Source: Thermoplasmata archaeon (lineage in GTDB: Archaea > Thermoplasmatota > Thermoplasmata > GCA-020350865). From it: a stretch of 64,000 nt of DNA. The notes beneath the pieces are model-generated. The model did not search any database. It saw only the letters and a list, made by a program, of their open reading frames with translations, and was not told the origin of the DNA. Below are positions 15,514-50,727 of the stretch, one piece after another. Location: NCBI GenBank assembly GCA_020348445.1, contig CP070751.1:3436248-3500247 (forward strand), in the 5' to 3' direction. The position numbers were made by a program, and so were the translations under genes. Numbering within the stretch: position 1 is the first letter of the stretch; the number at the start of each line of letters is the position of its first letter.

Positions 15514-15534
15514 GGTCGTAAAATTAGGGTGGGA

Positions 15535-15635
15535 GTCCTGAGGTTTAAGACTTGAACGTTTTACAGTATAACCGAGGGATAAAGTGTTCCTTATATCTCT
15601 TTTAAAAAGAAATTAAGAGGAACATGATAGAGAGG
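15535..15635 (+). ncRNA. Copy C (divergent) of an unassigned two-hairpin intergenic repeat element
   Basis: Same 9+28+9 first hairpin spacing, conserved GGYTTAAGA/TTTA/ATAACC motifs and second 9-bp stem as copies at 37280 and 50549, with compensatory changes. Confidence 0.6.
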
Positions 15636-15699
15636 TAGGTTGACACTTTTAAAAAACTGAAAAACTATAAATACACTTCAAAACCTAAATCCCAATCAT

Positions 15700-36167: not shown

Positions 36168-37193
36168 TTATATTCCCTCTAAATCATCCTCAGTATTATT
36201 TTTAATCCTTCTCTCATACTGGGCAATGGCCACTCCGCATATAATAAGTGCAGCGAAAACCACGGTGCTTAGGGTAATTATCTCCCCTGGCCAGAAATAT
36301 GAAATCGCGCTAGCAAATACTGGTATGAGATAGATGAACAAAATTATCCTTGAAAGCTCGCTTGTCCTGAGTATCCAGTACCACACGAGAAGGGCAAAGG
36401 ATCCGGGAAACAGCGCGAGAATTACGATGATATTCCATGAATAAAGGGAAATGGAAGGTACCTTTTCATGCGGAGACTCTAAAATTGAAAAAACAGCCAG
36501 AATTACAGTACCAAGAAGCATACTTATTATGGCAACTGTCAAGGGATCATATTTTTCTAGTATCTTCTTGCTCATAATGGAAGAGAAGGCATATGAAATT
36601 GCCGACATCAAGATGAGGATGTTGCCCAAGAAGATCGAATCTCCTAGGCTCAAACCCCCTCCCGTTACAAGTAGCAATGTTCCAGACAAGGCGATCACGG
36701 TGCCTATCACCTTGTTTGCGCCCAAGGGCTCTTTTAGAATTAGAACTGCCATAATTATGGTGAATATTGGACCAGAAGCCTGTATTATGCTGCTCAGATG
36801 GGCAGAAGTCATGGTCATACCGTAGTTCTGAAACAGGTTTGGAAGTGTAATACCCACCAGACCTAGAATTAGGAAAAAGAAGAAGTCCTCTTTTAAAGAT
36901 TTTATTATTCTATTGGAATCTTCTTTGACTATTAAGAATAAAAAGAGGGGTATTATCGCGATCGTGTATCTTAGTACAGCCAAGGTTATTGGTTCAACTT
37001 CGTCCAAGGCGATCTTCAAAAGCGGAAAAGAAAGCCCCCAGCAGAAGACAGCAAAGAACATTCCCATCCATCCAAAATAGTTCAAAGGGCGATTTTTGGG
37101 TTTTTGGGATTCTGCATGTTCGCCAGATGCCTTTTGATTGGGCCCTGAGTCCACCAAATCTTGAATTTCAGAATCCGGGATTGTCTCCGCCAT
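36168..37193 (-). CDS. EamA/DMT family transporter
   Basis: About ten TM helices, WGLSFP, LRY, QNYG, IIQASGPIFT, YLIPVF. Confidence 0.92.
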   Translation of the reverse strand: MAETIPDSEIQDLVDSGPNQKASGEHAESQKPKNRPLNYFGWMGMFFAVFCWGLSFPLLKIALDEVEPITLAVLRYTIAIIPLFLFLIVKEDSNRIIKSLKEDFFFFLILGLVGITLPNLFQNYGMTMTSAHLSSIIQASGPIFTIIMAVLILKEPLGANKVIGTVIALSGTLLLVTGGGLSLGDSIFLGNILILMSAISYAFSSIMSKKILEKYDPLTVAIISMLLGTVILAVFSILESPHEKVPSISLYSWNIIVILALFPGSFALLVWYWILRTSELSRIILFIYLIPVFASAISYFWPGEIITLSTVVFAALIICGVAIAQYERRIKNNTEDDLEGI

Positions 37194-37279
37194 TGGCCCA
37201 CATAACCAACTTTATGGATTTAAAGAATTCGAACTTATTTTCTTGTATTCTTTTCCAATAACGGTGTTATTGGGTGTGA

Positions 37280-37378
37280 GCCCTTAGGCTTAAGATAACA
37301 GCTCTTTATTGCATAACCTAAGGGCTAAGTGGACTATGAAAAAATCATGTAGGAAATGGAATAGGCCACGAAGGAGGG
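37280..37378 (+). ncRNA. Copy A of an unassigned two-hairpin intergenic repeat element
   Basis: GCCCTTAGG-N28-CCTAAGGGC then GTGGACTAT-N23-ATAGGCCAC; 88/99 identical, ungapped, to 50549-50647. Confidence 0.7.
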
Positions 37379-37475
37379 CGTCCTTGGGGGAGGGAAAAGG
37401 TAATATCAAAGATAAAAACTGAAGAATGTCGTTTCTTTCAAAAACCTTCTTAAGGCTCATATCCATTCTGAATCC

Positions 37476-38057
37476 ATGCTGAGGGACAAGAAAGAAAGAA
37501 TGAAAAAGTTGGACGATAAGATATGTGAAGGGGAGGTGGACAAGGAGATACTGCCGATTATCGAGAAGATAAACTCAAATCCCAATTACTTCACCACAAG
37601 CAGTTGTGCAGGAAGAATCGCAGTAATAGGGCTTTCAGAAATAGGCGATAAGGAAGGAGCTGAATTCCTGGGCAAATGGCATCGAGAAGTTGAAGTTCAG
37701 GAGGTAGTGAAGGCCTATTCAAAGGTCAAGGACTACAAAAACATCTTCCTTTTGGCTCAATCACCAATTATCCATGTGAGGTGTAGAACACTAGAAAGCG
37801 CTGTTGCACTGAGGAACCTCGCAGCAGAATCCGGATTGAAGTACTCAACCATAAAATCACTCACCCTTGATTCAAAAAATGATCCTCAGAAAATAGTGGT
37901 TGAAATTCTCAGTTCCGAAAATATTCATGTGCCAATTGCAAGGGATGCTAAGGTATACCCAGATGAGGATTACCTCTCTTTTTTGGTAGAAAACGCCAAT
38001 TTAGCACTTAAAAGGGCAAGGCAAAAATTAATGAAATTCAAACAAAACCTGCCCTAA
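37476..38057 (+). CDS. taw3: tRNA(Phe) wyosine-derivative methyltransferase Taw3/Tyw3
   Basis: VDKEILPII..IN....FTTSSCAGRI, KWH, PIIHV, SGLKYS. Confidence 0.93.
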   Translation: MLRDKKERMKKLDDKICEGEVDKEILPIIEKINSNPNYFTTSSCAGRIAVIGLSEIGDKEGAEFLGKWHREVEVQEVVKAYSKVKDYKNIFLLAQSPIIHVRCRTLESAVALRNLAAESGLKYSTIKSLTLDSKNDPQKIVVEILSSENIHVPIARDAKVYPDEDYLSFLVENANLALKRARQKLMKFKQNLP

Positions 38058-50407: not shown

Positions 50408-50548
50408 GGACTTTTTCCTCGCAACGAGTATTGTATGGGTTGATATTTACCTTTTTTGTTTGATTTATATGAACAAATCCTTTTCATAGTTTTTTTAGTT
50501 CCTGGGTGGGTGGAGGGAGGTAGGTGGTGGGTAGATCTTTATGCGGGG

Positions 50549-50647
50549 GCCCTTAGGCTTAAGATATCAACTCTTTATCGCATAACCTAAGGGCAAAGTG
50601 GCCTATGAATTAATCATATAGGATATGGAATAGACCACGATGGAGGG
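50549..50647 (+). ncRNA. Copy B of an unassigned two-hairpin intergenic repeat element
   Basis: GCCCTTAGG-N28-CCTAAGGGC then GTGGCCTAT-N23-ATAGACCAC; 88/99 identical to 37280-37378. Confidence 0.7.
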
Positions 50648-50727
50648 GGGATGGTGGGAGGGATGAAGATGATAGATAAAAAACGATATCAAAAATATAT
50701 TATCACCCAAACCCAATTCCTTATGTC

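Follow-up and report, generated by a model that had tools for sequence, protein, structure and literature searches.

Results

A twin-hairpin module lies between eamA and taw3

The DNA that we analyzed is a stretch of 64,000 nucleotides (the window) from the 5.16 Mb, single-contig genome of an uncultured Thermoplasmata archaeon, here called G000. The spacer between the divergent eamA and taw3 genes holds a G-rich element with two hairpins (copy A), and two further copies (B and C) lie elsewhere in the window. Their features, in window coordinates, are as follows; R1 is a covariance model of the element, and the G-run motif is defined below.

37270..37384, + strand: copy A, the twin-hairpin module with its immediate G-rich flanks (full match to model R1, 115.3 bits)
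37272..37280, + strand: left G run of copy A, a degenerate first block of the G-run motif (from comparison with solo motifs)
37280..37325, + strand: hairpin 1 of copy A, with a 9-bp stem, a 1-nt bulge, three further pairs and a loop
37326..37328, + strand: linker between the hairpins of copy A, TAA (from alignments)
37329..37369, + strand: hairpin 2 of copy A, with an invariant GTG/CAC foot and an inner stem that is swapped with full compensation between subfamilies
37370..37400, + strand: right G-rich tail of copy A, which continues the G-run motif (from reading of the sequence)
50504..50531, + strand: solo G-run motif slightly upstream of copy B (from motif comparison)
50539..50653, + strand: copy B (model R1, 120.3 bits; 88.9% identity to copy A over 99 nt)
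15525..15640, + strand: copy C, of a subfamily with a different, compensated hairpin 2 stem (model R1, 102 bits, E 1e-26)

The arms of hairpin 1 (37280-37288 and 37317-37325) enclose a loop of 28 nt whose ends, TTAAGA and ATAA, are invariant across family A, the name that we use for the branch of hairpin-1 elements without a tRNA that includes copies A, B and C. The left G run and the hairpin 1 stem overlap by one base, a G that closes the former and opens the latter. The linker, which is TAA in copy A and AAA in most copies, is followed by the invariant GTG of hairpin 2, the arms of which (37329-37337 and 37361-37369) contain one A.G mismatch. The first part of the purine-rich right tail, which extends to ~37400, repeats the left G run directly but imperfectly. 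Reading of the sequence confirms the layout that a first-pass annotation had drawn for 37272-37378, namely two hairpins with a 28-nt loop, a 3-nt linker and a purine-rich tail. The inner ATGA/TCAT hairpin that it also described is present in copies A and B but is not kept family-wide, and RNAalifold does not predict it.

Copy B aligns with copy A over 99 ungapped nucleotides with 11 mismatches (BLASTN, E 7e-31), exactly as had been counted by eye for 50549-50647. Copy C has 55% identity to copy A in the model alignment and is missed by a BLASTN search with copy A. It nevertheless retains both hairpins, its hairpin 2 stem being replaced with full compensation, and the covariance model recovers what had been proposed as a more divergent copy at 15535-15635. 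A, B and C are thus homologous, with matches far beyond those expected by chance. An open reading frame of 58 codons on the C-rich strand (window 37290-37466, minus strand) overlaps copy A and is most likely spurious, given the indels in the hairpin loops among copies.

Genome-wide, BLASTN finds ~18 close copies of family A in G000 at 73-89% identity, with homology that ends within ~125 nt. The mean density is ~1 close copy per 290 kb, and the three copies within the 64 kb of the window are a local excess. The covariance model, trained on 16 copies, gives ~45 matches in G000, of which the weaker ones have hairpin 1 alone in common. By direct pattern count, hairpins of the hairpin-1 type number at least 48 and use 35 different stem pairs, the core being a 9-bp stem of nearly any sequence, a 1-nt bulge, three pairs and unchanging loop ends. 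Some copies are decayed, for example by an internal deletion at 205027 or by an insertion that splits the copy at 2969887-2970096. The best identity between any two G000 copies is 89%, with no near-identical pair, so the activity of family A in G000 is old with no sign of recent movement there; G002, one of four congeners introduced below, has copies that are ~96% alike. A literature search found no description of family A.

The fold is maintained on the G-rich strand

We tested the structure on 32 family A copies from five genomes. In this set 96.6% of cells pair as compared with 90.4 ± 0.7% in shuffles, none of the 500 shuffles reaches the observed value, and 35-41% of cells pair when the partners are slid. 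Helix 1 is paired in 99% of cells, four of the eight pairs of helix 2 change on both sides and, in total, 42 cells are changed on both sides, pair counts that are not independent events because the copies are related. Paired columns of family A contain 26 G-U as against 1 A-C combinations, the same bias is seen in the other hairpin-1 copies (13 G-U against 3 A-C), and in 18 of 31 copies a tandem G-A/A-G replaces two Watson-Crick pairs of hairpin 1. Despite the kinship of the copies, these patterns point clearly to a fold selected on the G-rich strand only. Selection of the fold on one strand means that a single-stranded form, be it RNA or DNA, is what counts. The covariation and the G-U/G-A bias fit RNA and folded single-stranded DNA alike.

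Family A copies sit inside a genus-restricted G-run motif

The first-pass annotation overlooked two relationships: the purine tail and the 5' G run are the halves of a single motif, and hairpin 1 is common to elements at tRNA ends. The G-run motif spans 30 nt: G blocks of 16 and 10 nt, in this order, are separated by an AT spacer of 4 nt, and ATTATT usually precedes the motif. Family A is always found inside this motif. Specifically, in copies A and B and those akin to them the module interrupts the first G block, and it interrupts the second in a G000 subfamily that includes the copies at 2291274 and 3916054, in all G002 copies and in copies from metagenomes. The module is flanked by a direct repeat of the target of 4-8 nt. 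This repeat is a perfect 6 nt at one metagenome locus (L099); it is 4 nt in the G002 copies, where one position is either C or T but agrees between the two sides; and it is imperfect in G000. It is readable either as a duplication or as the target together with the element's own terminal oligonucleotide. The invariable placement of family A in the motif, with a short target repeat around it, is the new observation of this analysis.

The motif also occurs alone. There are 35-40 solo motifs in G000, often in tandem, with examples at 204996, 674984, 2139233/2139309, 3936466, 3946560 and 5018528, among others. A 16-mer pattern of the motif occurs 21 times in G000 and 4-24 times per congener, with reversed-pattern controls at 0-1, and it occurs once each in two of 36 other Thermoplasmata genomes. 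The G-run motif is thus restricted to the same genus as the module. It could fold as a G-quadruplex. On the minus strand at G000:C1:2155509-2155756 there is an array of four units with a 72-76-nt period and a G-run motif at the start of each unit; a hairpin-1 copy without hairpin 2 breaks up the last of these units.

Relatives of hairpin 1 are found behind tRNA genes

Of 69 tRNA calls in G000, 22 have a copy of hairpin 1 located ~75 nt past the 3' end. Hairpin 2 of these tRNA-linked copies forms between the tRNA end and an inverted copy of it, and hairpin 1 is preceded by a direct copy of that end. The direct repeats of these relatives, 10-13 nt in length and accompanied by the inverted copy of the target, stop at the border of T-stem and T-loop. 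None of A, B, C and the other close copies adjoins a tRNA gene; they lie in the G-run motif instead. In 19 of the 22 tRNA-linked cases the fold forms on the strand antisense to the tRNA, and it has the same sense at tRNA-Leu(gag) (3218908-3218994), tRNA-Ala(ggc) (4789719-4789809) and tRNA-Pro(cgg) (3233486-3233563). Since both orientations occur, hairpin 1 with its 3-nt linker can sit either way round in the closing stem.

Tandem arrays of units also adjoin tRNA genes, and in these every unit is followed by another copy of the tRNA end. One array (G000:C1:4082935-4083428, + strand) has six tandem hairpin-1 units with three stem types beside an intron-bearing tRNA gene (4083404-4083534, minus strand). 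Ahead of most units stand the final 12 nt of the tRNA gene, complete or degenerate, and a short AT-rich stretch follows each unit, so the array looks like repeated insertion into a regenerated site.

Several forms lie between the two kinds of element. For example, G000:C1:4428211-4428309 (+ strand) has hairpin 1, a hairpin 2 of its own and then a sense copy of the tRNA-Pro end. In two others (3594985-3595096 and 1269920-1270031, both on the minus strand) a Watson-Crick closing stem encloses both hairpins, and these forms are three-way junctions, tRNA-like in shape.

Other tRNA-associated regions differ. A cluster of 25 tRNA genes at G000:C1:4640570-4643566 (minus strand) has no hairpin modules at all, unlike the dispersed tRNA genes, and this dense cluster may be of foreign (viral) origin. 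The tRNA introns of G000 were searched as carriers of the module and none contains a hairpin 1. The 88-nt intron of tRNA-Thr(tgt) (G000:C1:5034552-5034716, minus strand) forms a long hairpin that is a loose look-alike, with a bulged C and TTTAAGA after the 5' arm; the 3' loop end is absent. A row of integron-like cassettes in G000 was likewise considered and set aside, its folded repeats not being of the hairpin-1 type.

Copies are missing from orthologous loci and cluster by genome

We compared the loci of G000 with those of four congeners (G001 to G004), the comparison that decided our interpretation. At eamA-taw3, the site where a comparison for empty sites had been suggested, G003 has a short clean spacer, G002 has G-rich debris only and G004 carries an internally deleted remnant made up of the G run, the 5' arm of hairpin 1 and the 3' arm of hairpin 2. 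In an exact-protein look-up for empty sites in other strains, every further contig that encodes an identical TYW3 has a spacer of equal length, and a second protein gave no record. At the metallophosphatase locus of copy B, the spacer of G004 contains the G-run motif alone, and motif and hairpins are both missing from G001, from G002 and from the match in G003, the upstream region of which is different. The archease locus is empty in G001, G002 and G003, and the ThyA-like locus is empty in G001 and G004, where the protein is 89-92% identical. Overall, none of the four G000 loci checked has an intact copy in a congener, and one carries a decayed remnant. Loci that are empty in congeners also lack the G runs, so the motif and the module are gained and lost jointly or one shortly after the other.

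Conversely, only one of 14 copies from the relatives lies at a locus orthologous to a G000 copy. This is the locus upstream of the TP_methylase gene, which is occupied in both G000 and G003. In the tree, copies cluster by genome (G001 with support of 100/99, G003 with 99/98), seven G000 copies including A and B form a clade at 98/92, and the two copies of the one orthologous pair do not group together. Clustering by genome could also arise from gene conversion. The overall pattern is that expected of an element that has spread, or been homogenised, within genomes and that decays in place.

The covariance model gives 15-32 matches in each of the four congeners and no match in the 36 other Thermoplasmata genomes searched. 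An exact pattern of the commonest tRNA-linked stem, run against 185,579 species representatives, matches only four MAGs of this group, one of which is a closed 3.2-Mb chromosome labelled Methanomassiliicoccales archaeon bin396. Two metagenome contigs contain family A copies that are built in the same way. Phage and plasmid collections gave no match by BLASTN, and neither did viral contigs in two exact-pattern scans. All matches are thus confined to one genus of uncultured Thermoplasmata. The cumulative GC skew of G000, examined for replication-strand bias, showed no clear origin or terminus.

Taken together, the four loci without an intact copy in congeners, the clustering by genome, the tandem arrays and the restriction to one genus lead us to favor a mobile element, and they fit the second of two proposals of the first-pass annotation, a non-autonomous mobile element. 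The first, a dispersed stand-alone noncoding RNA, is addressed next.

Promoters, neighboring genes and the possibility of a structured RNA

Under this alternative, family A would be a structured RNA made from the G-rich strand, either a stand-alone small RNA or a portable 5'-leader or upstream module, and the hairpins, the tandem G-A pairs and the GGAGG-rich flanks would act as RNA, for example by binding a protein or ribosomes. The one-strand compensated hairpins, with their G-U excess and tandem G-A pairs, are what such an RNA would show. In addition, the gene next downstream is on the same strand for 12 of 17 copies (13 of 17 loci by a looser count), so that some copies may be transcribed in leaders. 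At the archease locus, a conserved TATA-like block precedes the insert and the start codon follows it, so the insert could be part of a long leader, and the TP_methylase upstream locus is occupied in two species.

However, the 80 nt upstream of family A copies contain no TATA-like box at a fixed distance, and the downstream genes, which code for TYW3, ThyA-like, archease, metallophosphatase, TP_methylase, radical SAM and cyclophilin-like proteins and for UbiA, GT2, an epimerase and an HTH protein, are functionally unrelated. Family A therefore has neither the conserved 5' UTR position nor the functionally related genes across species by which a riboswitch or leader is recognized. As for a stand-alone noncoding RNA gene, it has the covariation-supported secondary structure, but it lacks a promoter at fixed distance and its synteny is kept at one locus only. 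At eamA-taw3, copy A lies between two blocks that adjoin the gene starts and are conserved in four species. This places it outside both likely promoters, as had been concluded from apparent TATA boxes, and upstream of the conserved taw3 promoter block; at this locus copy A is probably neutral. The loci without intact copies, one of them with a decayed copy, and the separation of the orthologous pair in the tree also speak against an RNA gene, as does the antisense orientation of the fold in 19 of the 22 tRNA-linked relatives.

The view that no known RNA family matches is borne out by Rfam. At gathering threshold, Rfam 15 returns one tRNA only for the whole window, and with E values up to 10 the region 37150-37500 returns only RsmY, at 16 bits as compared with a threshold of 57, a chance-level match attributable to the GGA-rich tail of copy A. 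On this evidence we regard a structured RNA as unlikely, and the specific suggestion of a dispersed stand-alone noncoding RNA is not sustained.

Three smaller candidates were also discarded. C/D-box, H/ACA and K-turn assignments for hairpin 1 fail on reading, as the boxes and the 3-nt bulge are absent. A short peptide encoded from the right G run would lack its ATG in many copies. For the tRNA-linked copies, a promoter located in the AT-rich loop would be wrongly spaced for a transcript that includes the closing stem.

The search for a mobilizing enzyme

The first-pass annotation had named HUH/RAYT enzymes as the agent of mobility. G000 has five Y1 (IS200-type) transposase genes, and no hairpin 1 is found within 5 kb of any of them. 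A 661-bp IS200 is present in two identical copies with an intact Y1 transposase (G000:C1:2860419-2860769 and 3339079-3339429). This pair is the only clearly recent mobile element seen here, and its end hairpins are unrelated to those of the module in both sequence and shape. With 35.3 kb of G000 masked, the search for tyrosine recombinases found two C-terminal fragments and no full-length copy, and the search for reverse transcriptases found none. The integrase fragments (1864225-1864380 on the + strand and 2412539-2412649 on the minus strand) adjoin tRNA-Leu(taa) and tRNA-Met, as would be expected of SSV-type integrases that were split by their own integration.

A second alternative is that family A is a PATE- or REP-type derivative of the IS200/IS605 family that a Y1 (HUH) TnpA moves in trans as single-stranded DNA. 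Hairpins 1 and 2 would then be the left and right ends, and the apparent target repeat would consist of the target plus the terminal oligonucleotide. In its favor, family A has no terminal inverted repeats, its two near-terminal hairpins fold on one strand only, it is too short to code, five Y1 genes are at hand in the genome, and it fits the definition of a PATE (PMC3119063). Several features argue against this origin. The hairpins of the resident IS200 and the surroundings of the Y1 genes show no link to the module, as described above. Hairpin 1 is unlike hairpin 2, whereas the ends of IS605-type elements usually resemble each other, and its 28-nt structured loop is unlike the tight hairpins recognized by TnpA. 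In the geometry of IS608, a guide segment is expected beside the hairpin foot; the left repeat of family A abuts the hairpin foot and would leave no room for one. We therefore consider movement by a Y1 enzyme improbable, and HUH/RAYT mobilization, as originally proposed, is not borne out, with neither hairpin present at the element ends or in the surroundings of the five Y1 genes. Note that this HUH-specific version overlaps with a more general mobile element, so the likelihoods that we attach to the readings do not partition a whole.

Discussion

We think that family A is probably a non-autonomous insertion module that uses a folded, single-stranded intermediate to be copied into a short G-rich target. 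Copy A is one copy of a gene-less module of ~105 nt, composed of hairpin 1, linker and hairpin 2 inside a 30-nt G-run motif, and family A is one branch of a genus-restricted family whose other members, with the same hairpin 1, reside at tRNA 3' ends. The module would be selfish DNA that reaches new sites by way of the folded single-stranded form of its G-rich strand, landing in a short G-rich target such that its ends become flanked by a 4-8-nt direct repeat of that target. The resulting order of target copy, hairpin 1, linker, hairpin 2 and target copy is what the integration of a small circle by one crossover in the target sequence would leave behind, and the tandem arrays behind tRNA genes may reflect repeated integration events of this type. 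Mobility as a process, the nature of the single-stranded intermediate as DNA and not RNA, and the logic of target and repeat are what we infer from the repeat family itself, in which decay, the association with G runs and the other patterns are observed directly. Against this reading stands the observation that no transposase or recombinase is linked to the family. In addition, no classical transposition scheme explains the 10-13-nt repeats together with the inverted target copy of the tRNA-linked relatives.

A bolder version, which we rate as doubtful, would be a new type of miniature mobile element in the form of a single-stranded circle or dumbbell of ~100 nt that would find its landing site, a tRNA 3' end or the G-run motif, by a match of one arm or flank to it. 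Re-tailoring of this arm would give access to new targets, and in family A a G-quadruplex made of both G-rich flanks would replace the Watson-Crick closing stem.

Least likely of all, in our estimation, is a DNA-level structural or regulatory motif of promoter-bearing spacers that the host would maintain and that recombination or gene conversion would disseminate. Promoter-bearing spacers are indeed preferred: of the solo motifs none of 24, and of the family A copies 2 of 17, lie in convergent spacers, the left-hand gene reads away in 19 of 24 and 13 of 17 cases, respectively, and the G-run motif is strongly over-represented relative to its reversed-pattern controls, but there is no fixed spacing to gene starts, copies decay, and the whole unit including the G runs is missing at orthologous loci with well conserved flanking genes.

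If the favored reading of a non-autonomous insertion module is correct, then one genus of sediment Thermoplasmata carries very small hairpin insertion modules without a recognizable transposase, and these use two quite different landing sites, namely tRNA gene ends and a genus-specific G-run motif. This would make the genus a tractable case for finding a new route of mobilization in archaea. For annotation, these sequences should be recorded as repeats and not as riboswitch or small RNA candidates, and the G-run motif should be treated as a second, separate feature that travels with the modules.

Comparison with known systems

Two known classes are readily set apart from family A. It is not a MITE, an element with terminal inverted repeats that match a DDE transposon, as it has no inverted termini and its ends are direct G-rich repeats. 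In the attC sites of integrons, the outer R boxes carry a 5'-terminal AAC and a 3'-terminal GTT, accompanied by cassette ORFs and a nearby IntI. The GTT/AAC pairs of family A, in contrast, are internal to hairpin 1 and reversed in order, cassette ORFs are absent, and the tyrosine recombinases of G000 amount to the two fragments described above.

REP/REPIN elements with their RAYT enzymes, and the BIME mosaics, resemble family A in being dispersed intergenic hairpins with compensatory change, strand asymmetry and, in some cases, tandem mosaics. Family A differs from them in that no RAYT-like gene is flanked by its hairpins and in its low copy number. REPINs are inverted doublets of one 20-40-nt palindrome, whereas family A is ~105 nt long and has two unlike hairpins arranged in direct order.

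The nearest described class is the PATEs, palindrome-associated transposable elements of haloarchaea, which are non-coding derivatives of IS200/IS605 that are short, lack terminal inverted repeats, have near-terminal palindromes and cause no target duplication (PMC3119063). Family A shares with them the small size (105 nt) and lack of coding capacity, the shape, with near-terminal palindromes and without terminal inverted repeats, the heterogeneity of its copies and a presence or absence that varies between related genomes. Unlike in PATEs, its palindromes are unrelated to the IS200 ends of G000, a comparison that covers the ends of the two 661-bp IS200 copies and the surroundings of the five Y1 genes. 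In addition, its two hairpins are dissimilar and a short flanking repeat is present, which may or may not be a target duplication.

The att repeats generated by SSV-type and pNOB8-type integrases are direct repeats of a tRNA 3' end, as are those of the module's relatives, and integrase fragments abut two tRNA genes in G000. The module is unlike these systems in being a gene-less unit of ~100 nt with one conserved hairpin that is found at many tRNAs as well as at a non-tRNA motif, and in that no intact integrase was found in G000.

Closest of all are the tRNA-end modules of the same genus. Family A differs from these in that no tRNA gene adjoins it, hairpin 2 is its own and not an inverted tRNA end, it lands in the G-run motif and its repeat is 4-8 nt as compared with 10-13 nt. 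Nevertheless, the two kinds of module have in common the core of hairpin 1, the restriction to one genus, the wobble strand bias and a direct repeat of the target, and they are bridged by intermediate copies such as that at G000 4428211.
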